A stretch of 64,000 bases of DNA from an uncultured Gemmatimonadales bacterium (GCA_963708135.1 OY970192.1:1664001-1728000); one strand, 5' to 3'; positions 20,586 to 46,887 are shown, counted from the first letter of the stretch. Notes: generated by a model from the letters alone, not told the origin. A program made the numbers and translations.

Positions 20586-21569
20586 ATGCCATCGATGATC
20601 GAGGACGCACGCGCGCCGGGTTTGCCGGTCCATCGCTTCCCGTCGCTGTACGCGCTGTGGCGGAGGGCGCGTCTGAGCGCGCCGGGGCGGGCGTTTGCGC
20701 GGGCACGCGCGGGCCGCGTGACGCGGCGTCGCCTCGAGCGGCACGCGGCGCGGGCGGAGGTGGAGGCGGATCCGTCGTACGCCGGGGAGTGGCCGCATCT
20801 CGCGGCGCTGCTCGCGCGCCTCCGCCCGCGTGAGCGGTTCGTGGTGGATCTGGCGGCGGGGGACGGCGTCACGTCGTCGTGCACGCTGCCGCTCTTCCGG
20901 GACCACGGCTGGGCGGGGCTCGCGGTGGAATGCGACGCCGCCCGTTTCCGCCTCCTCGCCCACGCATACCGCCGCTTTGCGGACGTCCGCCTCTCCGACC
21001 ACCGGGTTACGCCCGCGGACGCCGCGGCTGTGCTCGCGCGTGCCGGGACGCCGCGCGAGCTCGGCGTGCTGAACCTCGACCTGGACTCCTTCGACCTCGT
21101 GGTGGCCGAAGCGCTCCTGGCGGAGTTCCGCCCGATCGTGGTGGACATGGAGGTGAACGAGAAGGTGCCGCCGCCAATCCGGTTTGCGGTACGCTACACG
21201 CCGGACTTCCGCTGGGATGAGGGGCACTGCTACGGCTGCTCGATCTGCGCGGCGGCCAATGTGCTCGGCCGCGCCGGCTATATCCTCGAGGCGCTCGTCC
21301 ACAACAACGCGTTCTTCGTGCGCGCGGACGCCGCGGCGGCCGTTCGCATCACGCCGCTCGCCCCCGCGCTCGCCTACCGGACGGGCTATCTCGAGCGTCC
21401 GGACCGGCGCCAGCTCTTCCCGTGGAACGTCGACGTCGACGAGCTTCCGGCCATGCCACCGGCCGACGGGGTGGACGCCCTGCGCCGCCGGTTCGGACGG
21501 GTGCGCGCGGATTTCGCGCTGCAGCTCGAGCCGCTCGCGCCGGGATGGGCGGAGGCGGCCGGGCGATGA
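20586..21569 (+). CDS. FkbM-like SAM-dependent methyltransferase fold protein
   Basis: VVDLAAGDG, GWAGLAVE, VLNLDLDSFD, FRPIVVDMEVN, YGCS..A, NAFFVR. Start uncertain. Confidence 0.65.
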   Translation: MPSMIEDARAPGLPVHRFPSLYALWRRARLSAPGRAFARARAGRVTRRRLERHAARAEVEADPSYAGEWPHLAALLARLRPRERFVVDLAAGDGVTSSCTLPLFRDHGWAGLAVECDAARFRLLAHAYRRFADVRLSDHRVTPADAAAVLARAGTPRELGVLNLDLDSFDLVVAEALLAEFRPIVVDMEVNEKVPPPIRFAVRYTPDFRWDEGHCYGCSICAAANVLGRAGYILEALVHNNAFFVRADAAAAVRITPLAPALAYRTGYLERPDRRQLFPWNVDVDELPAMPPADGVDALRRRFGRVRADFALQLEPLAPGWAEAAGR

Positions 21570-22894
21570 GCGCCGGTCTGCCCCGGGGGGCATTCGATCT
21601 GGCGCCGTCGCGCGTGCGCGCCCGGTTTGCGGTGGCCCGGCGCGCCGGCACGCCGGCGTGGCTCTGGCCCGGCGTGCCCCCTGAGGCGTGGCGGGTGGCG
21701 CTAGAGGCGATCGGGGCGGCCACCTCCCGGGTCCTGGCGGGGGTCCCGGCCAGGCTGAAGGTCCCGTCCGGCGCCGTGGGTGCGCTCTCCGTTGCCGCGT
21801 ACACGTCCGGTATGGGACCCATGCTCGGGTACTGGATCGAGGGCGGGCGGCTGGACGCGGAGCGCGTGCCGGCGGCGGTGCTGCGGCTGCACCTGCGGCA
21901 CGGCCGGGAGCGGGCGGCGCGGCTCACGGCCGAGACGGCGCGCCTGGTCTCCCGGCTGGCCGAGGCGGGCGTCCAGGCGACGGTGCTGAAGGGGATGCAC
22001 ACGGCGCACGCCTACCTCCCGGAGCCCGGCACCCGCCCGCTTTCGGACGTGGACCTCTGGATCGCGGCGGACGAGCGGCGGACAGCCGAACGTGTGCTGG
22101 TTGACGCCGGTTACCTCGCCGGGCCGGTGCAGCGGCGGCCGCACAAGCGCGAGTGGCGGCCGCGGATGGGCCCGGCGCTCCCGCGCTCGCTCCTGCTGGC
22201 CCACGCCGGCGATCCGTTCGCCGTGGACCTTCACCTCTCGCTCGACCGCAACTTCTTCGGTGTCGGCACCGTGGCGCTGGACAGGGTCGCCCAACCCATG
22301 GAACCGTGGCGGCCGGCGCTCATCCGGGCCGACGCCAGCGCCGGGATTCCGGTTGACGGCGGTGCGGAATCCGGCCGGCCCGCGGTGGCCGCCGCCGGCC
22401 GGGTGCTCGGGCAGCCCGCCCTCACCCTGCTCCTGGCCGCGCACGCCTCGGAGGGGCTGCACAACCTCACGCTGCTGCGCCTGCTCGAGCTGGCAATGGT
22501 GATCCGGCGGGACCGGGAGACGCGCCTCCTCGTGTGGGAAGAGCTGCTCGAGGCGGCGGACGAGACCGGAGCCCGCCGTTTCGCCTATCCCGCGCTACGG
22601 CTGTGCGAGGTGCTCGCGCCCGGCACGCTGCCGGCGCGGGTGCTCGCGCGCTTCGAGGCCGCGGCGCCACCGGGCCTCTTGCGGGTGGTGGCGGGGCTCA
22701 CGCCGGCCACGGCGCAGCGGCTGGATGGCCTCAGCCTGGGCACCCGCTTCATGTGGGCGGGCACCGGCGCAGAGCGGCTCCGGCGGGCGCTGCACGCGCT
22801 CTGGCCGGCGCCCGCCGGCTACTCGCTCGGGCGGCTGCGCGAGATCTACGCAGGCCGCGCCTGGCGCGTGCTCCGCCGCGCGGGCGAGCGCTGA
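21566..22894 (+). CDS. Nucleotidyltransferase family protein (NTP_transf_5-like)
   Basis: VLKG...Y..PGTRPLSDVDLW, VDLH; ATGA overlap with the upstream gene. Confidence 0.82.
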   Translation: MSAGLPRGAFDLAPSRVRARFAVARRAGTPAWLWPGVPPEAWRVALEAIGAATSRVLAGVPARLKVPSGAVGALSVAAYTSGMGPMLGYWIEGGRLDAERVPAAVLRLHLRHGRERAARLTAETARLVSRLAEAGVQATVLKGMHTAHAYLPEPGTRPLSDVDLWIAADERRTAERVLVDAGYLAGPVQRRPHKREWRPRMGPALPRSLLLAHAGDPFAVDLHLSLDRNFFGVGTVALDRVAQPMEPWRPALIRADASAGIPVDGGAESGRPAVAAAGRVLGQPALTLLLAAHASEGLHNLTLLRLLELAMVIRRDRETRLLVWEELLEAADETGARRFAYPALRLCEVLAPGTLPARVLARFEAAAPPGLLRVVAGLTPATAQRLDGLSLGTRFMWAGTGAERLRRALHALWPAPAGYSLGRLREIYAGRAWRVLRRAGER

Positions 22895-22925
22895 GGCGTG
22901 ACGAGCGCAGCGCCGTGTCGTGGCC

Positions 22926-23708
22926 TCAGTTCGCCTGCAGCGCCTTCAGCTTGTCGGCCGCGTTCTTGTTCTGCGGGTTCAGTTCGAGTGAGCGCCGGTA
23001 GGCGCGGATCGCCTCGTCCTTGCGTCCGGCCGCCGCGTAGGCTTCGCCGAGACTGTCGTATACGTTCGAGGACTCGGAGTGCAGCCGTGCGTTCAGCTGG
23101 AAGAGCGCGATCGCGTTCTCCGCACTCTTTGGAAGAATCTCGTAGCCGAAGCGGTTGAGGCCGTTCTCCGGCAGCAGCAGGTTCTTGGGCGTCGCTTTCT
23201 CTTCCTTTTCGAACAGGCTCGTGGCCTCCTTGATCTGCCCGGCGCGGGCAAGTCTGAGGAACTCCTGCTGCGCCGCGACGCGCGGATTCGTCCCGGCGTG
23301 GCTGATCGTCCAGACGTAGGCGGCCACCGCCTTCTGCTGCTCACGCGTCAAGGGCATCCCGCCGCTCGGATGCATCTCGAAGCGGCGCGGGGTGACCGCC
23401 TTGAAGTCCTCCTTCCGGACGCCCCAGAAGATCGTCGAGAAGATGCCGTCGTAGTCACCCTTGCTATGCAGCCACTCGACATCGGCGAGGTTCGGAGCGT
23501 ACCGTCCGCTGCCGACGCCGCCGATCGCGTGGCAGACGACGCAGCTACCGTTATTGAAGATCTCGCTCCCCGCCAGCACGCGCTCGGGGGTCACGCTGTC
23601 GGGCACCGCGACTGGCGCGGCCGAGGTTTGTTGTGCGGCCGCATCCGGCGGGGCCACGGCCTGGCAGGCGAGCAGCAGCAAACCAGGAATCACGATCGCT
23701 GTCTTCAC
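22926..23708 (-). CDS. c-type cytochrome with C-terminal TPR
   Basis: Signal peptide, CVVCH, APNLAD.EWLH, MHPSGG; TPR SNVYDSLGEAY..AIRAYRRSLELNP. Confidence 0.85.
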   Translation of the reverse strand: MKTAIVIPGLLLLACQAVAPPDAAAQQTSAAPVAVPDSVTPERVLAGSEIFNNGSCVVCHAIGGVGSGRYAPNLADVEWLHSKGDYDGIFSTIFWGVRKEDFKAVTPRRFEMHPSGGMPLTREQQKAVAAYVWTISHAGTNPRVAAQQEFLRLARAGQIKEATSLFEKEEKATPKNLLLPENGLNRFGYEILPKSAENAIALFQLNARLHSESSNVYDSLGEAYAAAGRKDEAIRAYRRSLELNPQNKNAADKLKALQAN

Positions 23709-23829
23709 GGCGCATCCTCCTCTTTAACAGTGTGGGTACATCGGATCGCGCGGTCCGGCCGTGGAACACGGCGCGTGACCGCGCGATCCGTGGAGCCGCG
23801 CGAACGACCGCTCGGGCGACTATTGAGAT

Positions 23830-24933
23830 CTACGCGGGCCGCGCCTGACGCGCGCTCCGTCGCGCCGGGGACCGGCGAGGCTGGGCGAGTCCACCCCGCG
23901 GCGGGCCGGCATCGGTCCAGCGCAGGACGCCGCCCTCGGCGCGCACTCGGCCAGCCTCGGCGTGGTCGCCGAGGGCCGGGACGAGCCGGAGGTCCAGCAC
24001 GCGGATCACGCCTGCCGCCACCACGAGCGCCACGTCCTCGGCCTCGGCCTCGAGAACGGGCCGGCGGAACACGGCCAGGTCCGCGCGCGCGCCGACCTCG
24101 AGCGAGGGTGGCGGCAGGCCGAGCCGGCGCGCGGCGGCGTCGCCCACGGCGTCGAGCAGCCGGGCGTCCGTGAGCGGGCCGAGACGGCGCGCGTGGCGCA
24201 GCTCGTCGAGCAGCGAGCCGGCGGCGGTGAGGCGCGAGTCGCTGCCGAGGAGCACGTCCACGCCGGAATCGAGCAGGGCCGCGGGCGCGGTCCGGCCGAG
24301 CAGGAAGAGGTTCGAGGTCGGGCACCAGACCACGGCTGCGCCCGCTTCGACCAGGCGCCGGGTGCCGTCCCCGTCCACGCCCACGGCGTGCACGGCCAGC
24401 AGGTCGGGCGTGAGCAGGTCGAGGCGGGCGAGCTCTCTCACTTCGTCGGCCGCGGCCTCGTTGGTGCCCTCCGCAAGGTGGATCGCGAGCGGCCCGCTCC
24501 CCGCCGCCGCCGCGCGCAGGTCCGGCTCGAATCCGAGGGAGTGGACGGAGCGGATGCGGGCCACGCGCAACGGCAGGCCGGCCTCGAGGTCCGGCTCCCA
24601 GCGGTCGTGGTGCACCACCGTCGTCACGCCCGCGAACAGGTTCTTCCAGGCGCCGCGCAGCAGTGCCTCCCGGCGAGGCACGCCGCGGCCGCGCGCAATG
24701 GCGTCCGCGCAGCGCGCATGGATGTCCCGCCCCCACGCGTAGGCATCCGGGTAGGGCGGCGCGCCGAGCCGGCCGTAGTGGTTGCGGTGCAGGTGGTCGT
24801 GCGCGTTGACCAGCCCGGGCCGCAGCTCGCCGCCCGGGATGCGGAGCACGACCTCGAAGCGCCCCTCCGGCGCGACGATGCGGCCGTCCTCCACGCCGAC
24901 CGCCGCGTTCGCCGCCTCCACGAGGAACCTCAT
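23830..24933 (-). CDS. Metal-dependent amidohydrolase (deaminase-type)
   Basis: PGLVNAHDHL, GVTTV, IHLAEGT, VHAVG, WCPTSN, LGSDS; ATGA coupling. Confidence 0.85.
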   Translation of the reverse strand: MRFLVEAANAAVGVEDGRIVAPEGRFEVVLRIPGGELRPGLVNAHDHLHRNHYGRLGAPPYPDAYAWGRDIHARCADAIARGRGVPRREALLRGAWKNLFAGVTTVVHHDRWEPDLEAGLPLRVARIRSVHSLGFEPDLRAAAAGSGPLAIHLAEGTNEAAADEVRELARLDLLTPDLLAVHAVGVDGDGTRRLVEAGAAVVWCPTSNLFLLGRTAPAALLDSGVDVLLGSDSRLTAAGSLLDELRHARRLGPLTDARLLDAVGDAAARRLGLPPPSLEVGARADLAVFRRPVLEAEAEDVALVVAAGVIRVLDLRLVPALGDHAEAGRVRAEGGVLRWTDAGPPRGGLAQPRRSPARRSARQARPA

Positions 24934-25631
24934 GGCGGCCCCCGCCGGCGAAGCAGGAGGGCGAGCACCAGCGGCAGCCCGAGCTGCTGCGCGTACCGAT
25001 CGAGGCGGCCGGCCCGGGCGTAGAAGCCGCGCACCTCCGGACCGACGCGTCCCTCGACCGTGTCGAGCGGCTCGAGCCCCGCGCGCTCCGCGGCGGCGGC
25101 GTGCGCAGCCGCCGCGTGGACGTGGTGCTCGATCTCGACCAGCGCGCCGGCCTGGTCGCGGAAGGTGCGCCGGTGGCCGGCGGCCGCGGCGGCGGGATGG
25201 AAGTCGCTGACGAGCACCGCCCCGCCGGGGCCGCACACGCGGCCGAGCTCCGCGTAGGCGGTGGCCAGATCCGGCAGGTGGCCGAGCACGAGCCGGCACC
25301 AGACCAGGTCGAACGTGCCGTCCCGGAACGGGAGCCGCCGCACGTCCGCGGCCGCGAGCCGGCGCCCGCCCCGCCCCGTCGCGAGCATCTCCGGCGTGAG
25401 GTCGATGCCAACCGAGAGCGCGGCGCCGGAGCGCGGCAGCCGCCGTCCCGTGCCGCACCCGGCGTCGAGCAGCCGCCGCCCCTCCACCGCCGGCGAGAGG
25501 CGCCGCGCCACGCTCTCCTCGAGCCGGCTCACCGCCGTCTCCCGCGCGTAGCCGGGTGCCCACCGCCGGTACGCCTCGCGGGGGGCGAGGGGCGCGGCCG
25601 CCGCCGGGCCGGAAGCCGTCGGGGCGCTCAC
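24930..25631 (-). CDS. Class I SAM-dependent methyltransferase (BioC-like)
   Basis: AYRRWAPGY, LLDAGCGTGR, LPF..GTFDLV, VSDFHP. Confidence 0.88.
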   Translation of the reverse strand: MSAPTASGPAAAAPLAPREAYRRWAPGYARETAVSRLEESVARRLSPAVEGRRLLDAGCGTGRRLPRSGAALSVGIDLTPEMLATGRGGRRLAAADVRRLPFRDGTFDLVWCRLVLGHLPDLATAYAELGRVCGPGGAVLVSDFHPAAAAAGHRRTFRDQAGALVEIEHHVHAAAAHAAAAERAGLEPLDTVEGRVGPEVRGFYARAGRLDRYAQQLGLPLVLALLLRRRGPP

Positions 25632-25689
25632 GCGCGACTCCGCCGTACGCCGCCGCCCCTGCCGGGCCCGACCCGCGGGGGTGCGCTCA

Positions 25690-27204
25690 TCACGGCGTCA
25701 CTGCCGCCGGCGGCCGCAGGTGACCGTACTGCTGGCGGTCCTCGGGCGGGATGGCGGCCCACCTGCGCACGGCGCGCAGCAGCCGCGGGTCCTCGAACTC
25801 GCCGCGCTCCCAGCGCCTGCGGGCGAGCACGCGAGCCAGAACGCGGCCCCAGCGGCGGACGCGCCGCTCGTGGACCGAGGGGAAGCGGCTGCGCAGCACG
25901 AGCTCGAAGTTGGCCACGCGGGCCTTGAGCCGCCGGTCGAGCCACGGCACCTCCGGATCCTCGTGGGTCATCCACGACACCCAGCGCGGCTCGATCCACT
26001 CCTCCAGCGTGTCGGGCGTGCCGGCGAGCGGGTCCACGTCGCCGTAGGTGCCGCGGCGCTGCGGCGTGGGCGTGTAGAAGTAGCGGATCAGCTCCATGTC
26101 CGGGTTCACCGCCTTCAGCCGGCGGATGAAGGCGAGCGTGTTCTCGATCTCGCGCTCCGGCTCGTCGGGGTCGCCGAAGACGAACGAGAATTCCGGCGTG
26201 ATGCCGTGCTCGCGCGTGCGGGCCGCCACCTCCAGAACCTGGGCGGTGGTGAGCTTCTTGTTCATCCGCCGGAGCACCTCGTCGGAGCCGGACTCCGCGC
26301 CGAAGAAGACCATGGAGAGCCCGGCGCGGCGGAGCAGCCGCAGCGTGTCATCCGAGAAGCGGAGCAGCGCGTCCACGCGCGACTCGCACCACCAGCGCAG
26401 CCCGAGCGGCGCGAGGCGCTCCGCCAGCTCGCGGGCGTGCGCCTCGGTCAGGAAGAAGTTGTTGTCGTAGAAGTGGACGGAGTCCATCCCGTGCGTCCGG
26501 GCCAGCCACGCCAGGTGCGCCGCCGTGCGCGCGGGCGCCTGCTGCTTCTCGCGGCTGCCGAACACGGACACCACGCCGCAGAAGCTGCAGGCGTACGGGC
26601 AGCCGATGGAGGCCTGGTAGACCCCCGAACGGCGGCCCAGGTGCGTCGGGTGAAGGTAGTCCGCCACGGGGATCCGGTCATACGGCGGGTCCGGCAGCGC
26701 GTCCGGCCCGATCCACGGCCGCTCCGGCCCGATCCGGTGCGTGCCGTCCGACTCCCGGAACGCCAGTCCCGCCACGGTGCGCGGGTCGCGCTGGCCATCC
26801 ACGACCTCCAGCAGCTCCACGAAGGTGCGCTCCCCCTGCCCCCGCACCGCGTAGTCGATGTAGGGTGCGTTCAGCACCGGGTGCGGGTAGAGCCCCGCGA
26901 AGTTGCCGCCCCACACGATCGGCAGGCGTGGATATCTCGCCTTGAGGCCGCGCGCGAGCGGCACCGCGGACACCAGCTGCGGACCCGGCATGACCGTGAA
27001 GGCGACGGCCTTCACCGGATCCGGCCCGCCCGCCGCCGCGTCGATGCGCGCCGCGAGCTCGCCCGCCACGTCCACGCCGGGGCGGTTGCCGTCCACGATG
27101 TCCCAGGATGTTCCCTCCGGAAGCGCCGCTCCCACGGCCATCACCGAGAGCGGAAAGCGACGGTTCGGCGGCCGCGTGGCCCGGGGATTCACGAGCAGGA
27201 TCAT
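25690..27204 (-). CDS. B12-binding domain radical SAM protein
   Basis: N-terminal Rossmann B12 domain (PIVWGG, VRGQGE), CPYACSFC, FYDNNF, GAESGS. Confidence 0.93.
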   Translation of the reverse strand: MILLVNPRATRPPNRRFPLSVMAVGAALPEGTSWDIVDGNRPGVDVAGELAARIDAAAGGPDPVKAVAFTVMPGPQLVSAVPLARGLKARYPRLPIVWGGNFAGLYPHPVLNAPYIDYAVRGQGERTFVELLEVVDGQRDPRTVAGLAFRESDGTHRIGPERPWIGPDALPDPPYDRIPVADYLHPTHLGRRSGVYQASIGCPYACSFCGVVSVFGSREKQQAPARTAAHLAWLARTHGMDSVHFYDNNFFLTEAHARELAERLAPLGLRWWCESRVDALLRFSDDTLRLLRRAGLSMVFFGAESGSDEVLRRMNKKLTTAQVLEVAARTREHGITPEFSFVFGDPDEPEREIENTLAFIRRLKAVNPDMELIRYFYTPTPQRRGTYGDVDPLAGTPDTLEEWIEPRWVSWMTHEDPEVPWLDRRLKARVANFELVLRSRFPSVHERRVRRWGRVLARVLARRRWERGEFEDPRLLRAVRRWAAIPPEDRQQYGHLRPPAAVTP

Positions 27205-28013
27205 GGAACCGTCGCCTCCCAGAGGTCGAAGCGGGACGGGGCGCGCCGCCGCCGGAGCCGCGCCACCAGCGGCCGCGCCTCGTACCAGAGTGGATAGCGG
27301 ACGCGGCGGCGGCGCCAGCGGAGCCCGAGCGGGGCCGAGGCCTGCTCCAGGGTTCGGGCCGTCAGGAACTCGATGAACGGCAGGGTGAGGAGCGCCCCGG
27401 CCCGCGCCCCGAACCGGCCCGCGGCGTCCGCCCGCTTCTCCGCCACCATGCGCCGACCCGCTTCCTCATCGCGGTAGAACGGCGAGTCCAGGATCACGAC
27501 ACGCCCGCCCGGGCGCACCGCGCGCACCGCCTCGGCGAGGGCGCGCGGCAGGTCCAGCGCGTAGTGCAGCGACGCGTTGAAGACCGCCAGGTCGAAGCTC
27601 CACGGCCGCAGCGGCAGCGCCTCGAACGAGGCGACGATGGGGCGGACGCCTCCCCGCGCGCTCCCGGTGCGCGGCGCGGCGCCGAGCCCGTCCACGGCAT
27701 CGTCGCGCAGGTCGAGCGGCACGGCGTCGTGGCCGTCCAGCGCGGCGCGGCGGGCGAGCCAGCCGTTGCCGGCGCCCAGGTCGAGCAGCCGGAGCGGCGT
27801 TCCGCTCTCGCGTGCGAGCGGCCGGAGCACGTGCCGCAGGAACGCCTCGTAGCTTCGCGCACGCACCCGCCACTGCCGCGCCAGCGGACCACGCCGGAGG
27901 TAGGGCAGCACGTCCGCCTCGTGCCGCCCGCGCCCCCGCCCCTCCGCGGCGCGCTGCTCCGCATAAGCGCTCCGGAAGCCGGCCGGCGGCGATATCGGCG
28001 CGCGCGTGCTCAC
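27201..28013 (-). CDS. Class I SAM-dependent methyltransferase
   Basis: LLDLGAGNGWL, FDLAVFNASLHY, RPGGRVVILDSP; GTGA overlap. Confidence 0.87.
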   Translation of the reverse strand: MSTRAPISPPAGFRSAYAEQRAAEGRGRGRHEADVLPYLRRGPLARQWRVRARSYEAFLRHVLRPLARESGTPLRLLDLGAGNGWLARRAALDGHDAVPLDLRDDAVDGLGAAPRTGSARGGVRPIVASFEALPLRPWSFDLAVFNASLHYALDLPRALAEAVRAVRPGGRVVILDSPFYRDEEAGRRMVAEKRADAAGRFGARAGALLTLPFIEFLTARTLEQASAPLGLRWRRRRVRYPLWYEARPLVARLRRRRAPSRFDLWEATVP

Positions 28014-38542: not shown

Positions 38543-39771
38543 GAGCCGTGGACGCCGCGATCCGCGAGAGCACCGCGCCGGCTGACCGACGGCTGCTGGT
38601 CCTCAACACGGCGGCCCTCGTCCTGGCCTACGCCATCCCCCGCGCGCTCACGTTCGTGGCCGCGGTCGTAGCGGCCAGGGTGCTGGGCGCCGCCGTCTTC
38701 GGCGGCTTCACGACGGCCGCCGCGCTCGCCGTGCTGGCCAGCATCTTCGGCAGCCTGGGGCTCCAGCCGCTCCTCGTCCGCGAGATCGCGCGCGGCCCGG
38801 CCGATGCGCCGGCTCTCCTCGCGGCCGCCGACTCGGTCCGCGCGGCCGCCGTCGTGCTCATGGCGGCCGCGCTCCTCCTCGGCGTGCTCCTCCTGCACCT
38901 GCCCGCCCCGGTGGCCCTCGGCGCCGGCCTCCTCGGCGCGGGCTACGCCGTCGGCGGTTTCGTCGAGAACCGCGGCGCCTACTTCCAGGGCATCGAGCGC
39001 ATGCACGTCTGGACGCGGGCCAGCGCCCTCGTCGGCCTGGTCAGCGGCGTGCTGGGTACCCTCCTCGCCCTGGCCACCGGCAGCCTCGTGGCCTTCTGCG
39101 CCGCGCCCCTCGCCGGCCAGGGCGCGGCGCTCCTCTGGCTGCGCGGCCGTGCGCCGCGCGCCGGGAGCTCTCGCGCCCGCAGGCGCGCGCTCGTCCGCTC
39201 GCTCGCACCCTTCGCCGCGGCCTTCGTGGCCACCACCCTGTACTACCGGTCCGACGTGCTCCTGCTGGCGCGCTGGTGGCCCGCCCGCGAGGTGGGCCTC
39301 TACGGCGCCGCCCACCGGTTCCTCGACGTGGCGCAGGCGCTCGCGCTCGCGGCCGCCGGCGCGCTGCTCCCCCGCATGGCCCGCAGCCCGGGTGCGGGCG
39401 CCGCGATTGCCCGCCGCGCCCTGCTCCTCGGCTCGGCCGCCGCCGCCGCCGCGCTCCTGGCGCTGCGCGTGCCGGTGGTGCGCCTCCTGTACGGCTCCGA
39501 CTATGCCGCCGCGGCGCCGGTCCTGGCCCTGCTCGCGCCCGCCATCGTCCCGCTCTCGATCAACATGCTTGCGCTCGCCGCGCTCGCGGCCGCCGACCGC
39601 ATGGGCGCCGCGGCCCGCTCCTTCCTCATCGCCACGGTCCTGCTCCTCGCGCTCGACCTGTGGCTCGTCCCGCGCCACGGCGCCACGGGCGCCGCCGCGG
39701 CCGAGCTCGTGGCGGAGTCCGCGCTGGCTCTGCTGCTCGCCCGCGACGTCGCGCGCGCCGCCCGGCCATGA
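38539..39771 (+). CDS. Wzx-type oligosaccharide flippase
   Basis: ARVLG...FG, GLQPLLVREIAR, YYRSDVLLL, VGLYGAA, LVPRHGATGAAAA. Confidence 0.85.
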   Translation: MRAVDAAIRESTAPADRRLLVLNTAALVLAYAIPRALTFVAAVVAARVLGAAVFGGFTTAAALAVLASIFGSLGLQPLLVREIARGPADAPALLAAADSVRAAAVVLMAAALLLGVLLLHLPAPVALGAGLLGAGYAVGGFVENRGAYFQGIERMHVWTRASALVGLVSGVLGTLLALATGSLVAFCAAPLAGQGAALLWLRGRAPRAGSSRARRRALVRSLAPFAAAFVATTLYYRSDVLLLARWWPAREVGLYGAAHRFLDVAQALALAAAGALLPRMARSPGAGAAIARRALLLGSAAAAAALLALRVPVVRLLYGSDYAAAAPVLALLAPAIVPLSINMLALAALAAADRMGAAARSFLIATVLLLALDLWLVPRHGATGAAAAELVAESALALLLARDVARAARP

Positions 39772-40880
39772 GAGTCGCGTACCTCTCCAAGGCGCTCGTG
39801 ACGGCCGCCTACCGCGCCAAGCTCACCGCGCTGGCGTGCCACGTGGACGTCGCCGCCCTGGTCCCCGACCGCTGGGGAAGCGCGCCGGTCGAGCCGGTCC
39901 GGGCCGGCGAGCATCCCGTGCAGTTCCTGCCGGCATGGCTCCACGGTCACAACCACCTGCACGTGTACCACGGGCTGCGCCGCGCGCTCGACCGCCTGCG
40001 CCCCGACCTGCTGCACATCGACGAGGAGCCCTACAGCGCCGTCACGCTCCAGGCCGCCACGCTCGCCCGCCGGCGCGCCATCCCCTGCCTCTTCTTCTCC
40101 TGGCAGAACCTCGACAAGCGCCTGCCGCCGCCGTTCGGCCTGCTGCGCCGCCATGTGTTCGTCCGCGTCAACGGCGGCATCGCCGGCACGGCCGCCGCCG
40201 CGCGCGTGCTGCGCGCCCGCGGCTTTTCCGGCCCGCTCGCCGTCATCCCGCAGTTCGGCGTCGATCCCGACCGCTTCCGCCCCGATGCCCTGGCTCGCGC
40301 GCGCAGCAGGGCGGCGCTCGGGATCCCCCAGTCCGCCTTCGTGGTGGGCTTCGGCGGCCGCCTCGTGCGCGAGAAGGGCGTCGACCTCCTCGTGCGCGCC
40401 GTCGCCGCGACGCCGGGCGCGTGGCTGCTCCTCGCGGGCGCCGGACCGGAGCGGCCGGCGCTCGAGCGGCTGGCCGCGCAGCTCGGCGTGCGTCTCGTCG
40501 CGACCGGGCAGCTCCCGTCCACCCGCATGCCCCCCTTCCTCGCCGGCCTCGACGTCCTCGCGCTGCCGTCCCGCGCCACCGCCAGCTGGGCCGAGCAGTT
40601 CGGCCGCATCCTCGTCGAGGCCATGGCCTGCGGCATCCCCGTCGTCGCGTCCCGCTCCGGCGAGATCCCCGAGGTCGTCGGCGAGGCCGGGCTCCTCATC
40701 CCGGAAGGCGACGCCGCCGCCCTTGCCGCGGTTCTTGCCCGCCTCGCGGACGAGCCCGCGGCACGCGAGGCGCTCGGCCGCGCCGGCCGGGCCCGCGTGC
40801 TCGACCGGTTCACCCATCGGCGCGTCGTCGCCGACTCCGTCGAGTTCTACGAGCGGCTGCTCGACCGGAGGCGCCCGTGA
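39768..40880 (+). CDS. Glycosyltransferase family 4
   Basis: GRLVREKGVD, EQFGRILVEAMACGIPVV. Confidence 0.93.
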   Translation: MRVAYLSKALVTAAYRAKLTALACHVDVAALVPDRWGSAPVEPVRAGEHPVQFLPAWLHGHNHLHVYHGLRRALDRLRPDLLHIDEEPYSAVTLQAATLARRRAIPCLFFSWQNLDKRLPPPFGLLRRHVFVRVNGGIAGTAAAARVLRARGFSGPLAVIPQFGVDPDRFRPDALARARSRAALGIPQSAFVVGFGGRLVREKGVDLLVRAVAATPGAWLLLAGAGPERPALERLAAQLGVRLVATGQLPSTRMPPFLAGLDVLALPSRATASWAEQFGRILVEAMACGIPVVASRSGEIPEVVGEAGLLIPEGDAAALAAVLARLADEPAAREALGRAGRARVLDRFTHRRVVADSVEFYERLLDRRRP

Positions 40881-42280
40881 CCGGCCTGGCCGCCCTCCTG
40901 CCACCGCGCCGGCCCGCGCCCCTCGCCGCCGCGGCGCCGGCGCGCCGCGATCCCGACGCCGACCTGGCCCTCGCGGCATCCGCCGCGCTCGCCGCCGGCA
41001 CCGTGCTCGGCCTCGCCGGTGCCGCGGCCGGCGCGCTCCCGCTCGCCCTGGCCGGCGGCCTCCTCGCAGCCGCCGCGCTCACCGTGCTGCTCGCGGCCGG
41101 AACGCTCCCGATCACCGCCACGCTCGCGCTGGCCGCGCCGCTGCCGGCGCTCTACGCCTCCGGCACCGTCCGCGTGGCCGCCGTTGCCCCGGTGGCGGCA
41201 ATCGCGCTGGTGGCCTGGTGCATCCGGCGCGGCGCCGACCGCGCCCCCCTGCGAGCGGGCCAGCTCCCGCTGCGGCCGCTTCTCGCCCTCGCGCTCTCCT
41301 TCCTGCTCGCGACCGCCTTCGCGGACCACGTCCTCCTCGGCGTCCGCGAGTCCCTCGACTTCCTCGTGCTCCTCGCGCTGCTCCTGGCCGCGACGGACGA
41401 GCTGGCCCGGCGCCCGGGCGCTCGTCACGTCCTCGTCGATACCCTCGTCGGAGCCGCCGGCGTGTGCGGTGCGCTCGCCGTGCTCGAGGCGGTCGGCGTG
41501 CTGCCGAACGCCTTCCCGCGCTGGGGCACGCCGTACCACCGCGCGGCGCTCGGCTTCGGCCAGCCGAACAACCTCGGCCTGTTCCTGGCTCTCGTCCTGC
41601 CGCTCGCGGCGCACCGCCTCGCCCGGAGCCGCGGCCCCGGCCGCGCCCTCGCCGGCGCCGCGCTCGCCGCCACGGCGGTCGGCCTCGTGGCCACCTTCTC
41701 CCGCACGAGCTGGCTCTCCGTGCTCGCGGCCGCCGCGGCGCTCGTGCTGATCGGCGAGTGGCGCCTCTTCCTGCGCGTCGGCCTGGCCGTCCTGGCGGCC
41801 GCGGTCGTCGTCGAGCTCGGCTCGGGCGGGATGCTGAGCGACACCTTCGCCCGCACGATCGGCGACTGGGTGGTCGAGCAGCGTGCCGCCCTCTTCCTGG
41901 CCGCGGCGCACATGTTCGCCGCCCATCCCCTCGTCGGCCTCGGCCCTGGCGGTTTCGCGGACCAGGTCGAGCGCTACGCGGCCGGGCTCATCGACCTCTG
42001 GGACCTTCAGGCCACGCCGCACGACGCCTACATCCAGATGGCCGCGGAGACCGGCGTGATCGGGCTGCTCGCCTTCCTCGGCTTCCTGTTCGGCGTGCTG
42101 CGCGTCGCCGCCCGCCGCACCCGCGCCGCGGCGCCGTCCGAGCGCGGGCTCCGGCTGGCGCTCTTCGCCTCGACCGTGGTGCTCGCCGTCCAGTGCATCG
42201 GCATCTGGCCCTTCAGCCACGGGACCGGGGAGGCCGCGGCGCTGATCCTGGCGCTCGTGTGCGCGGACGGGACGCCATGA
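40877..42280 (+). CDS. Wzy/O-antigen ligase family polymerase
   Basis: FGQPNNLG, TFSRTSW, HPLVGLGPGGF, PHDAYIQMAAETGVIG. Confidence 0.88.
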   Translation: MTGLAALLPPRRPAPLAAAAPARRDPDADLALAASAALAAGTVLGLAGAAAGALPLALAGGLLAAAALTVLLAAGTLPITATLALAAPLPALYASGTVRVAAVAPVAAIALVAWCIRRGADRAPLRAGQLPLRPLLALALSFLLATAFADHVLLGVRESLDFLVLLALLLAATDELARRPGARHVLVDTLVGAAGVCGALAVLEAVGVLPNAFPRWGTPYHRAALGFGQPNNLGLFLALVLPLAAHRLARSRGPGRALAGAALAATAVGLVATFSRTSWLSVLAAAAALVLIGEWRLFLRVGLAVLAAAVVVELGSGGMLSDTFARTIGDWVVEQRAALFLAAAHMFAAHPLVGLGPGGFADQVERYAAGLIDLWDLQATPHDAYIQMAAETGVIGLLAFLGFLFGVLRVAARRTRAAAPSERGLRLALFASTVVLAVQCIGIWPFSHGTGEAAALILALVCADGTP

Positions 42281-43401
42281 TCCTCGGCGTGAACGGCCGC
42301 TTCTACGCCGCGCCCGTGACCGGCGTGCAGCGCTTCGCCCGCGAGGTGGCCGGCCGCCTGCTCCGCAGCCATGCGACGGTGCTCTTCCTCCCCGCCGACG
42401 CGCCTCCGCCCGCGGGGCTCGCGCCGGAGACGCGCGTGGTCCTGGGTCGCCTGCGCGGGCACGTTTGGGAGCAGCTCGAGTTGCCAAGCCAGGCCCGCGC
42501 CCTCGGCTGCTCCGTCCTGCTCCACCTCGCGGGGACCGCGCCGCTCGCCCGCACGGGCGACGTCCTCGTGATCCACGATGTGTTGCCGCTCACCGATCCT
42601 GCGTGGTTCGGCCGCCGCTTCCGCGCCTGGCGCCGCCTGGTGCTCCGCCGGGCCGCGCCGCGCGCCGGCCGCATCGTCACGGTGTCCGCGTGGGCGGCGG
42701 ACGAGATCGCGCGCTCGCTGCGGGTCGCGCCGCGTCGCATCACAGTGGCGCCCCAGGGGCTCGCCCCCTTCGACCACCCCGCGCCGGCCGCCGCCGTCGC
42801 GGCGGCGCGTGCGCGCCTCGGCCTCGACGGCCCGTTCCTGCTCGCCATCGGCGCGGCCGATCCGCGCAAGAACCTCCGCTTCCTGGCCCGCGTGCTCCTG
42901 CGCTGGCGCGAGCGCGGCGCCGATCCGCCCCCGCTCGTCGTGGCCGGCGGCGCGCCCGCCCGCCTGTTCGCGGCCGCGGGAGACTGGGCCGCCGGCCTCG
43001 ACGTCCGGACCCTCGGCCGGTTGGACGATGCCACCCTCCACGCCCTCTACACTGCCGCCGCCGCGCTCTGCCACCCCGCGCACGCGGAGGGCTTCGGTCG
43101 GCCCCCACTCGAGGCGCTCGCCTGCGGCACGCCCGCCGTGGTGGCCGACTACGCCTGCGCCCGCGAGGTGCTCGGCGGCGCCGCGTGCATCCTGCCGCTC
43201 GAGCCGGACCGCTGGGTGGACGCCCTCGCGCCGCTCGCCGCCACCGCTCGCGCGGACCGCGCGACGCCGGGCGCCCCCGCCGCGCCGCCCGCGTGCCCGC
43301 TCCCTCCCGCCGCCCGCGCGAGCTGGGATGCCGCCGCCGCCGCCGTCCTCGACGCCTGCCGCGCCGCCGCCGCGGAGCGGCTCGGGAACGGGAGGCCGTG
43401 A
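42277..43401 (+). CDS. Glycosyltransferase family 4
   Basis: TGVQRFARE, WEQ..LP, PRKNL, EGFGRPPLEALACGTP. Confidence 0.92.
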   Translation: MILGVNGRFYAAPVTGVQRFAREVAGRLLRSHATVLFLPADAPPPAGLAPETRVVLGRLRGHVWEQLELPSQARALGCSVLLHLAGTAPLARTGDVLVIHDVLPLTDPAWFGRRFRAWRRLVLRRAAPRAGRIVTVSAWAADEIARSLRVAPRRITVAPQGLAPFDHPAPAAAVAAARARLGLDGPFLLAIGAADPRKNLRFLARVLLRWRERGADPPPLVVAGGAPARLFAAAGDWAAGLDVRTLGRLDDATLHALYTAAAALCHPAHAEGFGRPPLEALACGTPAVVADYACAREVLGGAACILPLEPDRWVDALAPLAATARADRATPGAPAAPPACPLPPAARASWDAAAAAVLDACRAAAAERLGNGRP

Positions 43402-44618
43402 TGCGCGTGGCCCTCGTGCACGACTGGCTGACCGGCATGCGCGGCGGGGAGCGCGTTCTCGAGGCGCTGATCTCGCTCTTCCCCGCGAGCGAGATCTTCA
43501 CGCTCTTCCACCTGCCCGGCAGCGTCTCCGCGGCGATCGAGGCGAGGCCGATCCACACCTCCTTCCTCCAGGCCGCGCCGGGCCTCGCGCGCGGATACCG
43601 CCGCTGGCTGCCGCTCTTCCCGCTCGCCGCCCGCGCGCTCCCCATCGAGGGCTTCGACCTGGTCGTTTCGAGCAGCCACTGCGTGGCCGCCGCCGTCCGG
43701 ACCGGCGGCACCCCGCACCTCTGCTACTGCCACACGCCGATGCGCTACGCCTGGGAGCCGATCGACCCCTACCTCCCATCACGCGGCCGCCGCGCCCTGC
43801 GTCCCGCCGCCAGCCTTGCCTCGGCCGCGCTGCGCCGCTGGGATGCCGCGGCCGCGCGCGGGGTGGACGCCTTCATCGCCAACTCCGCGAACGTACGCGA
43901 GCGGATCCACCGCGCCTACGGCCGCGCCGCCGCCGTGGTCCACCCGGGCGTGGAGCTCGGCCGCTTCGCCGCGCCGCGTGCGCCGGAGGACTTCTACCTC
44001 GTGCTCGGCGCGCTCGTCCCGTACAAGCGCGTGGACCTCGCCATCCGGGCGTGCGCCCTGCTCGGGCGCCGCCTGCTCGTGGCCGGCGTCGGCCCCCACG
44101 AGAAGCGCCTGCGCGCCATGGCCGGCCCCGGGACGGAGCTCCTCGGCCGCGTCTCCGACCTCGAGGCCGCGGACCTCTACGCCCGCTGCCGCGCACTGCT
44201 CCTCCCGGGCGTGGAGGACTTCGGCATCACGCCCGTCGAGGCCCACGCCGCCGGCGCGCCCGTCCTGGCCCTCGCCGCGGGCGGCGCCCTCGAGACCGTG
44301 GCCGGCCCCGTGCTGGACGCCGCCGGCCGCGTCCTGCGTGTCCACGACCCCGCCGGCTCCGGACCCACCGGCGTGCTGTTCGACCAGCCGGCGCCCGCGG
44401 CGCTGGCCGCCGCCATCCTCGCCGCCGAGCGCATGCGCTTCCCGGAGGCGACGCTGCGCGCGAGCGCCGCCCGCTTCTCTCCCGCCCGCTTCGCCGCCGG
44501 GATCCTCGCGGCCGTGGACCGGCTCGTGGAAGCGGCCCCCGAGCGGCGCGATGGCAGGGCACGGCCACGGCCGGCCACGACCGGCGGCAGGGACGGCCTC
44601 GCGGCGGGGGCCGCATGA
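43401..44618 (+). CDS. Glycosyltransferase family 4
   Basis: RVALVHDWLTGMRGGERVL, YCHTPMRYAW, VPYKRVDL, EDFGITPVEA. Confidence 0.93.
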   Translation: MRVALVHDWLTGMRGGERVLEALISLFPASEIFTLFHLPGSVSAAIEARPIHTSFLQAAPGLARGYRRWLPLFPLAARALPIEGFDLVVSSSHCVAAAVRTGGTPHLCYCHTPMRYAWEPIDPYLPSRGRRALRPAASLASAALRRWDAAAARGVDAFIANSANVRERIHRAYGRAAAVVHPGVELGRFAAPRAPEDFYLVLGALVPYKRVDLAIRACALLGRRLLVAGVGPHEKRLRAMAGPGTELLGRVSDLEAADLYARCRALLLPGVEDFGITPVEAHAAGAPVLALAAGGALETVAGPVLDAAGRVLRVHDPAGSGPTGVLFDQPAPAALAAAILAAERMRFPEATLRASAARFSPARFAAGILAAVDRLVEAAPERRDGRARPRPATTGGRDGLAAGAA

Positions 44619-45757
44619 GACCGCTGCGCGTGGTCCACGTGGGCTGCGAGCTCGATCGCGACCGCCGGGGAGGCGTGGACCTCCTCGAGGCGTGGCCCAC
44701 GCTGCCCGCGGTGGCGGTGGCCGTGAGGGACGCGGGCGTGGAGGTGTCCGTGGTCCAGGCGGCGCATCGCGACGGGATCGTTCGGCGCGGCGGCGTCGTC
44801 TTCCACTTCGTGGCCGAGCCGGCGCTCTGCCGAATTCCGGGCACCCGCGGCGCGGCGGGACGCCTCCCGCTCCGGCTGGCCCGGACGGTGGCCCGGCTGC
44901 GTCCGGATCTGCTCCACCTCCACGGCCTGGCCTTCCCGCTCCACGCCGCGCTGCTCGCCCGCCTCGGCGTGCCGCTGCTCGCGCAGGATCACGCCGACCG
45001 GCCGCCACGCCGCTGGCGCGCCGTACACCGGCGCGGCCACGCGCGCCTGTCCGCCGCCGCGTTCACTGCCCGCGAACAGGCCGACCCCTTCTTCGACGCG
45101 GGGCTCCTCGCACCCGGGACGCCGGTGCTCGAGATCCCGGAATCCTCCAGCGCCTTCACGGCCGGCAGCCGGCGGGCGAGCCGCGCCGCGGCCGGCCTCC
45201 ACGGCGATCCGGCCGTGCTCTGGATCGGCCGGCTCGACGCCGACAAGGACCCGCTCACCGCGCTGGCCGCCTTCCGCCTCGCCGCGCCGCTGCTCCCCGA
45301 TGCACACCTCTGGTGCTGCTTCGGCGCGGAGTCGCTGCTGCCGGCCGTGTGCGCGCGCGTCGCCGCCGATCCCGTCCTCGGCGCCCGCGTCCACCTGCTC
45401 GGCCGCGTGCCGCCCGAGAACGTCGAGATGCTCTGCCGGGCGGCCGACCTGTTCCTCACGACCAGCCGGCGCGAGAGCGCGGGCTATGCGCTGCTCGAGG
45501 CGCTCGCCTGCGGCTGCGCCCCCGTCGCGAGCGACATCCCGGCCGTACGCGCCCTCACCGGCCGCGGCAGAATCGGCTGGCTCGCGCCCGCCGGAGATGC
45601 GCCCGCCTTCGCCCGGGCGCTCCTCGCCGCCGCGACCGCGGACCGCTGCGCGTGCCGCCGCCTCGTGCTCGACCACTTCGCGCACCGCCTCTCGTTCTCC
45701 GCCCTCGGCGCGAGCCTCGCCGCTGCCTACGAGGATCTCGCGGGAGCCCACCGATGA
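44615..45757 (+). CDS. Glycosyltransferase family 4
   Basis: WIGRLDADKD, ESAGYALLEALACG. Confidence 0.9.
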   Translation: MRPLRVVHVGCELDRDRRGGVDLLEAWPTLPAVAVAVRDAGVEVSVVQAAHRDGIVRRGGVVFHFVAEPALCRIPGTRGAAGRLPLRLARTVARLRPDLLHLHGLAFPLHAALLARLGVPLLAQDHADRPPRRWRAVHRRGHARLSAAAFTAREQADPFFDAGLLAPGTPVLEIPESSSAFTAGSRRASRAAAGLHGDPAVLWIGRLDADKDPLTALAAFRLAAPLLPDAHLWCCFGAESLLPAVCARVAADPVLGARVHLLGRVPPENVEMLCRAADLFLTTSRRESAGYALLEALACGCAPVASDIPAVRALTGRGRIGWLAPAGDAPAFARALLAAATADRCACRRLVLDHFAHRLSFSALGASLAAAYEDLAGAHR

Positions 45758-46887
45758 AGGTCGCCCTGCTCGTGCCCGGCGGCGTGGACCGCGGCGGGAC
45801 CCACCGCGTCATCCCCTGCCTGCTCTGGCTGATCGAGCGCCTCGCAGCCGCCGGGATCGAGCTCCACGTCTTCGCCCACGCCCAGGAGCCCCGCCCGGGG
45901 CACTGGATGCTGCTCGGCGCCCGCGTCCACAACGCCGGCCGGCGCCCCAGGCGGCTGCGTATGCTCGCGGACATCCTGGCCGAGCACCGGCGCGCACCCT
46001 TCGACGTGCTGCACGCCGTCTGGGCGGCGCCCTCCGGCACCGTGGCCGGCCTCGCCCGGGCGCTCACCGGCGTCCCCGTCCTGCTGCACCTCACCGGCGG
46101 GGATCTCGCCGACCTGCCGGAGATCGGCTACGGCGTGCGCGCACGGCTGCGCGGACGTGCCTGGCTCCGCCTCGCCGTCGCGGGCGCCGACCGCATCACG
46201 GTCCCCAGCGGCTTCATGCTCCGCCGCGCCGGCGAGCTCGGCATCCCCGCCCGCACGCTCACGTACGGCGTCGCACTCGACCGCTGGCCGCCCCTGCCGC
46301 CGCGCCGGCGAGCGCCGTTCGCCCCTGCCCGTATCCTCCACGTGGCCAGCCTCAACCGCGTCAAGGACCAGGAGACGCTGCTCCGCGCCGCCGCCGAGCT
46401 GCGCACCCGCGGCATCGATTTCCACCTCGATATCGTCGGCGAGGACACCCTCGGCGGGGAGGTACAGCGGCGGTGCGCGGCGCTCGGCCTGGCGGACCGC
46501 ACCACCTTCCACGGGTTCCTTCCGCACACAGCCCTCCGGCCCCTCGTGGAGGCCGCTGACCTGCTGCTCCTCTCTTCCCGCCACGAGGCCGACCCGATCG
46601 CGCTGCTCGAGGCGGCCGTCGCCGGCGTGCCCGCCGTCGGCACCGCCGTCGGCCATCTCGCCGACTGGGCGCCCGACGCCGCCCTCGCCGCGCCGCTCGG
46701 CGACGCGCCCGCCCTAGCCGCCGCCGCCGCCGCGCTGCTGCGCTGCGAGGACCGCCGCCTCGCCATTGCCGCCGCCGCCCAGCGCCGCGCCCGCGCCGTC
46801 GATGCCGACCATACCTTCGCCCAGGTCCTGGACGCCTACATCCGCCTCGCCCGCACTCGAACCCGCGCCTCCGCGCCCCGCCAATGA
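45754..46887 (+). CDS. Glycosyltransferase family 4
   Basis: ASLNRVKDQ, SRHEADPIALLEAAVAGVP.VGT.VG. Confidence 0.9.
   Translation: MKVALLVPGGVDRGGTHRVIPCLLWLIERLAAAGIELHVFAHAQEPRPGHWMLLGARVHNAGRRPRRLRMLADILAEHRRAPFDVLHAVWAAPSGTVAGLARALTGVPVLLHLTGGDLADLPEIGYGVRARLRGRAWLRLAVAGADRITVPSGFMLRRAGELGIPARTLTYGVALDRWPPLPPRRRAPFAPARILHVASLNRVKDQETLLRAAAELRTRGIDFHLDIVGEDTLGGEVQRRCAALGLADRTTFHGFLPHTALRPLVEAADLLLLSSRHEADPIALLEAAVAGVPAVGTAVGHLADWAPDAALAAPLGDAPALAAAAAALLRCEDRRLAIAAAAQRRARAVDADHTFAQVLDAYIRLARTRTRASAPRQ

Follow-up and report, generated by a model that had tools for sequence, protein, structure and literature searches.

A conserved cobalamin radical-SAM gene cassette interleaved with a Wzx/Wzy-type polysaccharide operon in a Gemmatimonadales genome

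Sugar-acting enzymes that combine cobalamin with radical S-adenosylmethionine (SAM) chemistry are exemplified by GenK and GenD1, and TIGR04295 is a family that we take to be tied to an oligosaccharide cassette. MenT1, ANT(2''), LnuA and FKRP are known to act on hydroxyls, to which they transfer nucleotidyl or phospho groups. Work on pseudomycoidin has shown that PsmN is required for hexose addition to the phosphorylated peptide, that it needs D134/D136, and that it can be modelled on ANT(2'') (PMC6993621). The authors leave PsmN open as either a new transferase or the maker of a substrate for a host glycosyltransferase (PMC6993621), and a further report states that no in vitro test was made (PMC8498205). 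The present locus lies in a 64,000-nucleotide stretch from an uncultured Gemmatimonadales bacterium (GCA_963708135.1 OY970192.1:1664001-1728000; "the window" means this whole stretch), where genes for two cobalamin-binding radical-SAM proteins, methyltransferases, a kinase and a nucleotidyltransferase share positions 20586-46887 with a Wzx/Wzy-type exopolysaccharide (EPS) operon. An initial annotation had taken these 26 kb to be one system; comparison across genomes instead divides them into two modules, a conserved radical-SAM cassette and an EPS operon that, like an FkbM-like gene and an ABC exporter gene, is lineage-specific. The Wzx/Wzy assembly system is of a known kind, and the tailoring cassette matches no curated family. 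No description of cobalamin radical-SAM enzymes in a Wzx/Wzy pathway, or of the cassette itself, was found in the open-access literature.

The conserved unit is ten genes rather than the whole 26 kb: the radical-SAM genes rSAM_A and rSAM_B, three class I methyltransferase genes (MT1-3), an amidohydrolase gene (AmH), an HprK-like kinase gene, a PF14907 nucleotidyltransferase gene (NTP5) and two GT4-family glycosyltransferase genes (GT4d and GT4e). A genome collection was scanned with a 20-sequence rSAM_B alignment, which returned at least 586 relatives in 599 candidate stretches, and the best 80 loci, from Gemmatimonadota, Alphaproteobacteria and Acidobacteriota, were analysed. Contig ends cut 33 of these, and since only the other 47 reach 20 kb (full-length loci, below) the counts of core genes are lower bounds: MT3 occurs in 75 loci, rSAM_A in 68, MT1 in 59, AmH in 55, MT2 in 49, GT4e in 46 and GT4d in 34, while the kinase and NTP5 were found in 46 and 33 initially and in 68 and 40 with divergent queries. 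Pairwise identities of GT4d, GT4e, NTP5, kinase, AmH and MT3 track those of rSAM_B (rho 0.48-0.71, with 0 of 499 permutations as high) among loci whose kin are not independent; the tracking shows joint inheritance and not function.

The kinase lies within 1.5 kb of GT4d or GT4e in 29 of the 40 loci holding both, and it therefore follows that the EPS block, which in the window places 13 kb of capsule genes between them, lies inside the cassette. Because GT4d and GT4e are frequent among the 80 loci and the EPS-module genes rare, the two glycosyltransferases belong with the radical-SAM genes. In the window, the start of GT4d falls within the stop codon of GT4c (ATGA), so that the core GT4 genes are coupled to the end of the wza-wzy operon. 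The linkage of the radical-SAM genes to two GT4s, a kinase and a nucleotidyltransferase, as initially supposed, is kept across Gemmatimonadota, Pseudomonadota and Acidobacteriota.

The cassette also varies. In its expanded form it gains two or three more B12 enzymes together with a SPASM enzyme (22/80 loci), and in six of the 80 loci GT4d/e are replaced by c16, a protein with no Pfam or NCBIfam match that may, from its motifs, be GT-B-like. In Caulobacter sp. S45 and Gluconacetobacter, GT4e was not found genome-wide and c16 stands in its place. Fusions were seen in a single assembly each: GT4d-GT4e (788 aa), MT3-MT2 (562 aa), MT2 joined to another methyltransferase (529 aa) and kinase-c16 (804 aa), from loci L019, L021, L155 and L055, the last being the source of kinase-c16. 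Ten loci from even draws of genomes, nine of them acidobacterial (L156, L158, L159, L166, L167, L171, L175, L177, L178 and L180 in all), show no NTP5 and have, adjoining rSAM_B or in its vicinity, a member of a 290-360-aa family without a Pfam match; its nucleotidyltransferase label comes from a G-S-x-D-x-D motif seen by eye, and it could possibly be a non-orthologous stand-in for NTP5. Genes like that for GTP cyclohydrolase II occur in or beside the Acidobacteriota cassettes L163, L164, L165, L172 and L180, four of them with a GT87-type membrane protein.

The two radical-SAM proteins have the class B layout, with an N-terminal B12-binding domain (PF02310), PF04055 and a CxxxCxxC motif whose cysteines are invariant in alignment A1. 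Their NCBIfam scores do not exceed 124 bits for family cut-offs of at least 250 (the best is BchE, 124 against 481). Scores of 64-124 bits stand against cut-offs of 400-650 for BchE, HpnJ, HpnR, PhpK and AprD4, and those of 36 and 98 bits against a cut-off of 400 for TIGR04295. No NCBIfam cut-off was reached, in keeping with the initial view of a candidate undescribed system, and a BchE, hopanoid or phosphonate identity was rejected on scores so far under the curated cut-offs. The best solved relatives of both are AprD4 (E 7e-14 and 3e-23) and PDB entry 9ccb.

AmH (PF01979) keeps H45, H47, H152xxE155, H182 and D232 invariant in 39 aligned sequences. Its structural model has a predicted local distance difference test score (pLDDT) of 93.7, and sequence and fold searches alike rank deaminases of adenosine, methylthioadenosine (MTA) and S-adenosylhomocysteine (SAH) first, with a template-modelling score of 0.69 to PDB entry 4gbd. 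These matches place AmH with the deaminases and not with sugar deacetylases. In five related Acidobacteriota loci AmH is fused to MT1, an arrangement that would fit a role in SAH removal.

The kinase carries a Walker A motif, scores 32 bits against the TIGR04352 cut-off of 200 and has HprK as its best natural PDB match (E 8e-6); HA and GxGKS are invariant in its alignment and the acidic pair after the P-loop varies. NTP5 matches PF14907, with an invariant K-G and D-x-D (D145/D147), and its model (pLDDT 88.5) resembles polymerase-beta-type enzymes: MenT1 (Z 12.0, root-mean-square deviation 3.1, 181 residues aligned), ANT(2'') (Z 11.5; 3.2; 165), LnuA (Z 9.3; 3.5; 150) and FKRP (Z 6.1; 4.3; 162). 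A sequence search of PDB with NTP5 gave nothing meaningful, and Foldseek gave matches only at E of 0.045 or above. No classical sugar-1-phosphate nucleotidyltransferase is among the fold matches listed, although NTP5 may yet have such an activity. The core glycosyltransferases are nearest to PimA (GT4d) and to BshA and MshA (GT4e), at E-values of 1e-22 to 1e-26 in PDB, a similarity at the family level.

The EPS module reads as a Wzx/Wzy system of gene types already described. Wzx scores 81.8 bits with PF01943 (cut-off 28.2) and has 10 hydrophobic segments, Wzy scores 54.4 bits with PF04932, over the cut-off of a family that also includes ligases, and the priming transferase (PF02397), Wza (PF02563) and Wzi (PF14052) are each above their Pfam cut-offs. 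The Wzc-like protein exceeds the cut-off of PF13807, falls just under that of PF02706 and matches TIGR01005 weakly in its periplasmic part; with no Walker A motif and no tyrosine in its last 40 residues, it has no intact tyrosine-kinase domain. Its counterparts in L047 and L089 have a C-terminal domain that is likewise degenerate, without Walker A or tyrosine tail. The FkbM-like protein has no Pfam or NCBIfam match, and Atlas groups it, at 0.97, with clusters that carry PF05050 in 16-25% of their members.

Pfam confirmed most of the inventory first listed for the block, namely wzi, wza, wzc, the priming transferase, wzx, wzy, five GT4 genes, two B12 radical-SAM genes, three methyltransferases, an amidohydrolase, a PF14907 protein and an ABC exporter. 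The names HprK-like and FkbM-like gain from the Walker A motif and the Atlas clusters, respectively, but neither protein reaches a curated family cut-off. Similarly, the description of a full Wzx/Wzy set holds for the gene types, and has to be qualified for the lost Wzc kinase motifs and for an unlisted gene for a cytochrome c/tetratricopeptide repeat (TPR) protein. The reported lack of nucleotide-sugar synthesis genes, precursor peptide, RiPP (ribosomally synthesised and post-translationally modified peptide) recognition element (RRE) or PqqD, and lasso cyclase within 20586-46887 was borne out, including by a check of the gaps for small open reading frames (ORFs).

The window's EPS operon, FkbM-like gene and ABC exporter are lineage-specific, each gene being present in 0-8 of the 80 loci: Wza 5, Wzc 5, priming transferase 8, Wzx 5, Wzy 4, Wzi 2, GT4a 4, GT4b 2, GT4c 0, FkbM-like 3 and ABC 2. 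An operon of the window's type accompanies the cassette in L025, L047, L086, L089, L096 and G016, all of them Gemmatimonadota.

Even draws of genomes were searched with rSAM_B or its profile, at E-value limits that varied between searches. Relatives were found in 16 of 350 other genomes of the phylum of the window, in 2 of 400 Pseudomonadota, in 2 of 400 Alphaproteobacteria and in 32 of 300 Acidobacteriota, as well as in 54 of 150 genomes of the proteobacterial family of genome G654. That family is inferred to be Rhodanobacteraceae because Rhodanobacter, Dyella and Luteibacter are the genera named for relatives of the G654 rSAM_B at 75-83% identity. With 7942 of 8000 candidates at E<=1e-30, the rSAM_B family is a large one, and it is mostly annotated as bacteriochlorophyll cyclase, a label that the scores do not support. 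The plasmid collection gave only distant radical-SAM matches, at no more than 33.5% identity among the 30 matches listed, and a look-up of sequencing runs listed no RNA holder.

The association of the cassette with polysaccharide operons was assessed from markers (Wza, Wzc, priming transferase, Wzx, Wzy and Wzi) within 10 kb, with loci labelled by hand. Polysaccharide genes occur within that range in 14 of the 80 loci and in 10 of the 47 full-length ones, against a background of 2.6% of positions in the window's own genome. Two loci, L087 and L090, have only nucleotide-sugar genes in range (the L087 genome has Wzc further out) and L057 only YjbH. On a quick tree, 79 rows require 11 changes of the polysaccharide label; the 50 labelled or full-length rows require 9, at least 6 of them forced by the starred branches. 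Unrelated polysaccharide operons accompany the cassette in at least five lineages. Besides the window type, the contexts include a second type beside G307, where the full core adjoins a different Wzx/Wzy-type operon, those of Sphingomonas L058/L067, of Caulobacter sp. S45 and Gluconacetobacter and of G1425, wzi inside the cassette in Rhizomicrobium L055, and Wzx inside it in G418. The Wzx and Wzy proteins of the other operons are barely or not similar to those of the window (seven from loci outside the Acidobacteriota were compared, at E 2e-4 to 8).

In the G654 family, 20 of the 54 loci were fetched, selected for long contigs. In 18 of the 20, wzz immediately precedes MT3 and shares its strand, in the order wzy-wzz-MT3, with a gap of -55 to 340 bases in 17 loci and 1020 in one; insertions put the wzz region of the remaining two out of range. 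Where the stretch reaches, the operon mostly holds fdtA/fdtB-type amino-sugar genes, wzx, one GT2 gene, wzy, wzz and MT3, with just one other glycosyltransferase ahead of wzy, and it runs on to AmH-MT1-rSAM_A-GT4d-GT4e. In three of four even-draw Pseudomonadota matches the cassette contains or adjoins Wzx, Wzy or Wza; in G1357 no polysaccharide marker was seen. Six of 25 fetched Acidobacteriota loci (of 32) carry PF01943 or PF04932. Other envelope enzymes found in the remaining loci are GT9, GT2, GT87 and PMT-like transferases, sulfotransferases, and PIG-L with GNAT.

We favour, with moderate confidence, a reading in which the cassette builds a methylated sugar unit that GT4d and GT4e add to the Wzx/Wzy repeat. 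Every chemical step that follows is drawn from family membership. The kinase would phosphorylate a sugar, or a precursor resembling one, at a hydroxyl, and NTP5 would either add a nucleotide, giving an activated donor, or act as its fold relatives do and transfer a nucleotidyl or phospho group to one of the sugar's hydroxyls. The class I methyltransferases would methylate O or N atoms, and rSAM_A and rSAM_B unactivated carbons, with a radical rearrangement as a possible alternative. AmH could deaminate SAH and 5'-deoxyadenosine, which are inhibitory by-products. GT4d and GT4e would then attach the product to the repeat while it is undecaprenyl-linked, and flipping, polymerisation and export would follow. 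For loci with no adjoining assembly operon, an operon elsewhere in the genome might act in trans. A fuller proposal can be put forward only tentatively, as one that we would sooner doubt than defend: that cobalamin radical chemistry C-methylates or rearranges a surface-polymer sugar, that this sugar is activated non-canonically by an HprK-like kinase and a polymerase-beta-fold nucleotidyltransferase, and that the process is widespread in soil bacteria.

Several observations weigh against the favoured reading. No polysaccharide marker was in range in 37 of the 47 full-length loci, and to that extent the glycan-gene linkage supposed by the initial annotation fails, while it stands in the repeated joining to unrelated Wzx/Wzy operons. 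No Wzx or Wzy_C was present in 19 of the 25 fetched Acidobacteriota loci. Among the even-draw Gemmatimonadota (16 matches), a Wzx/Wzy operon lay within about 20 kb in 1 of 11 fetched loci, some of them on short contigs. The 18 of 20 count for wzz represents one lineage, and the enrichment over 2.6% overstates the link because genes for glycans of any function tend to be grouped in islands. As for the enzymes, donor activation has no direct support because the closest folds of NTP5 transfer a nucleoside monophosphate to hydroxyls; the best solved relatives of GT4d (PimA) and GT4e (BshA, MshA) act on small or lipid acceptors; and the sole pair of kinase and PF14907 protein known to be characterised acts on a peptide (PMC6993621). 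Taken together, the counts for and against point to a link between cassette and polysaccharide that is recurrent and independent but not obligatory.

The main rival keeps the same chemistry and changes the acceptor to a non-polymeric one (lipopolysaccharide core, glycolipid or glycoprotein glycan), co-location then arising from the clustering of envelope genes; it is unlikely, and yet the most serious of the alternatives. Genes of GT9, the heptosyltransferase family, in the cassettes of five of the 80 loci and in further even-draw loci would suit such an acceptor, as would the recurrent GT87, PMT-type membrane transferases, O-antigen-ligase-like proteins, sulfotransferases and PIG-L de-N-acetylases, one EptA neighbour, the closeness of GT4d to PimA and the absence of Wzx/Wzy from most loci. 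It accounts less well for the operons of the window and of the G654 family, which put GT4d/e on one predicted transcript with wzx, wzy and either wza or wzz, or for the Wzx within the cassette of G418. Chance adjacency, with the EPS operon landing in a cassette that has nothing to do with it and GT4d/e being captured passively, is very improbable. It would explain why the window's operon joins the cassette in Gemmatimonadota only (5 of 80 loci plus G016) and why a foreign cytochrome gene also breaks the block, but at least five further, non-orthologous polysaccharide contexts and the stop/start overlap of GT4c and GT4d argue for more than coincidence.

Two other products are conceivable. Tailoring of aminoglycosides and pactamycin is the model for a diffusible methylated glycoside or nucleoside-like metabolite, for which the kinase and nucleotidyltransferase would provide self-protection or masking. 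This has a small chance of being correct. For both radical-SAM proteins AprD4 is the first or second match and, among solved relatives with a name, the nearest; NTP5 folds like ANT(2'') and LnuA, AmH belongs to a nucleoside deaminase group and GT4e is closest to BshA/MshA; the expanded cassettes with extra B12 and SPASM enzymes (22 of 80) and the GTP cyclohydrolase II beside rSAM_B in some Acidobacteriota also agree with it. No exporter, regulator or scaffold-forming enzyme is conserved across the loci, however, the cassette has been embedded repeatedly and independently in polysaccharide operons, and the scores for AprD4 and for other pathway families fall far short of the cut-offs. Least probable of all, and by any measure remote, is a RiPP pathway, in which the kinase and NTP5 would phosphoglycosylate a peptide, like PsmK/PsmN, and the radical-SAM enzymes would methylate it. 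The pair of kinase and PF14907 protein is known to have been characterised in lasso clusters only (PMC6993621, PMC8498205). Here, though, the gaps of the block contain no small ORF, and precursor, RRE, protease and cyclase are all absent from the cluster; PqqD and lasso B2 occur once each in the genome, 3 Mb off; and no convincing shared family emerged from 1123 small ORFs located near the cassette across 95 sources. One large small-ORF cluster was rejected as a precursor family, being a spurious chain of low-complexity matches.

Genes were called with a codon-usage model trained on the host genome, because the raw ORF list was crowded with shadow frames at 75-80% G+C. The 22 genes so called (Table 1), their products checked with Pfam, NCBIfam and Atlas, form four units. 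On the plus strand, the FkbM-like gene and NTP5 meet at an ATGA junction. The minus-strand unit rSAM_B-MT3-MT2-rSAM_A-MT1-AmH has four 4-base overlaps and one 58-base gap. The kinase gene diverges from rSAM_B and is followed by ABC-wzi on the minus strand. In the last unit, wza-wzc-priming transferase-wzx-GT4a-wzy-GT4b-GT4c-GT4d-GT4e, all junctions overlap. Better starts were set at 21566 (NTP5), 38539 (wzx), 42277 (GT4b) and 44615 (GT4d), each overlapping the preceding stop. The cytochrome c/TPR gene at 22926-23708, which breaks up the block and has an 80% identical paralogue at C1:3.217 Mb of the host genome, is probably an insertion outside the pathway.

That genome is a single contig of 5.45 Mb whose rSAM_B relatives are named from Gemmatimonadota, and it has further B12-binding proteins, including a MetH-like one of 1183 aa. 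A trio of PqqD/RRE, lasso B2-type and 613-aa cyclase-like genes lies at C1:4735320-4737882, with no precursor called there. Within the window, 3490-10002 (minus strand) holds genes for a NosZ-like protein of 649 aa, a NosD-like protein, an ABC ATPase, a permease and a cytochrome c, probably a nitrous-oxide reductase-type cluster. Cupredoxin genes, in some cases accompanied by an outer-membrane barrel gene, are found repeatedly adjoining or within the cassette, as at window 18815-20434 (minus strand), at L011:9152-14835 and in L020, L039, L067, L091, L097, L099, L127, L128, L165, L169 and L178; the window's pair has counterparts 50-61% identical within the G012 cassette. Mono-haem and multi-haem cytochrome genes are common neighbours as well. 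Downstream of GT4e, 47258-50418 (plus strand) encodes a sigma-54 activator (PF00158) and a TPR-like protein, with counterparts of 59% and 34% identity about 8 kb from the G307 cassette (L102:136-2087); these genes include a possible regulator. Further on, 51446-52615 (plus strand) is presumably an IS4-like transposase gene, in a stretch of lower G+C (0.61-0.66) with more fragments close by; together with 52000-54500 and 58900-59600, it suggests a mobile-element region. An amidinotransferase/DDAH-like gene at 57331-58470 (plus strand) appears split over two frames (57710-58138 and 57994-58470), possibly by a frameshift.

Table 1. Genes of the block, with positions in the window and the evidence for each
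Feature	Position	Strand	Evidence
FkbM-like methyltransferase, accessory	20586..21569	+	3/80 related loci; no Pfam match
NTP5, PF14907 nucleotidyltransferase, polymerase-beta fold, core	21566..22894	+	Pfam; invariant K-G, D-x-D; fold
Cytochrome c/TPR lipoprotein, probable insertion	22926..23708	-	Pfam; partial matches in 3/80 loci
AmH, amidohydrolase, nucleoside/nucleobase deaminase group, core	23830..24933	-	Invariant residues; deaminase matches
MT1, class I methyltransferase, core	24930..25631	-	Pfam; AmH fusion in five Acidobacteriota loci
rSAM_A, cobalamin-binding radical SAM enzyme, core	25690..27204	-	PF02310+PF04055; 68/80 loci
MT2, class I methyltransferase, core, frequently lost	27201..28013	-	Pfam; 49/80 loci
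MT3, class I methyltransferase, core	28010..28837	-	Pfam; 75/80 loci
rSAM_B, cobalamin-binding radical SAM enzyme, core, search anchor	28834..30234	-	PF02310+PF04055
HprK-like P-loop kinase, core	30390..31460	+	68/80 loci with divergent queries
Wzi capsule assembly protein, EPS module	31569..33119	-	PF14052
ABC exporter, HepA/CydD-like, start uncertain, accessory	33119..34864	-	Pfam, NCBIfam
Wza-type export protein, opens coupled wza-GT4e operon	35074..35688	+	PF02563
Wzc-like co-polymerase, degenerate kinase domain	35688..37898	+	PF13807; motif check
Priming polyprenyl-phosphate sugar-1-phosphate transferase	37886..38542	+	PF02397
Wzx flippase	38539..39771	+	PF01943
GT4a, EPS module	39768..40880	+	Pfam; 4/80 loci
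Wzy/O-antigen-ligase family membrane protein	40877..42280	+	PF04932
GT4b, EPS module	42277..43401	+	Pfam; 2/80 loci
GT4c, EPS module	43398..44618	+	Pfam; 0/80 loci, found in G016
GT4d, core cassette glycosyltransferase	44615..45757	+	34/80 loci; ATGA overlap with GT4c stop
GT4e, core cassette glycosyltransferase, last gene of operon	45754..46887	+	46/80 loci

Phage binding and adhesion are governed by the substituents of surface glycans, and so are recognition by plants and the immune system and resistance to degradation in soil. Should the cassette indeed modify a surface-polymer sugar, it would represent a new class of bacterial surface-glycan modification, would give a function to about 7,900 misannotated "Mg-protoporphyrin cyclases" and would extend the role of PF14907 beyond lasso peptides. 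Since Rhodanobacter, Dyella and Luteibacter include cultured species, a direct test by knockouts and nuclear magnetic resonance is feasible; Caulobacter sp. S45, Gluconacetobacter asukensis and Sphingomonas sp. 7/4-4 are cultured carriers as well.

Set against known systems, the cassette shares parts with several. AmH keeps the metal and catalytic residues of the SAH, MTA and 5'-deoxyadenosine deaminases (Tm0936-like; PDB 4gbd, 4dzh and 4f0r), but at about 20% identity and with some 70 fewer residues. The radical-SAM proteins have the same domain order, B12-binding plus radical SAM, as AprD4, HpnJ, TIGR04295 and the sugar-acting GenK/GenD1, whereas they fall below the cut-offs of the first three and have other gene neighbours. 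With the Lic phosphocholine pathway (LicA, LicC, LicD) the cassette shares the logic of a kinase followed by nucleotide transfer, the product being attached to a glycan of the cell surface. The phospho-linked, multiply methylated substituent proposed in the initial annotation stays a hypothesis. The analogy drawn from phosphocholine activation in the initial annotation proves weak, however: the cassette kinase is of the P-loop HprK type, NTP5 is a PF14907 protein with a polymerase-beta fold rather than a LicC-family one, and none of the 22 block proteins has a Pfam match to choline kinase, the LicC-family cytidylyltransferase or LicD. FKRP, a LicD-type enzyme, is a weak fold match of NTP5, below MenT1 and ANT(2''). 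Pseudomycoidin and paeninodin-type pairs likewise join an HprK-like kinase (PsmK) to an NTP-transferase (PsmN), and D-x-D is found in both PsmN and NTP5; the cassette differs in having no precursor, RRE, protease or cyclase, its partners being GT4s, methyltransferases and B12 radical-SAM enzymes. Finally, group 1 capsule/EPS loci of the Wzx/Wzy kind have all their assembly and export gene types represented here, in one coupled operon plus wzi, but in this block the Wzc-like protein is degenerate, wzb and nucleotide-sugar genes are missing, and a radical-SAM cassette is interleaved with the operon.

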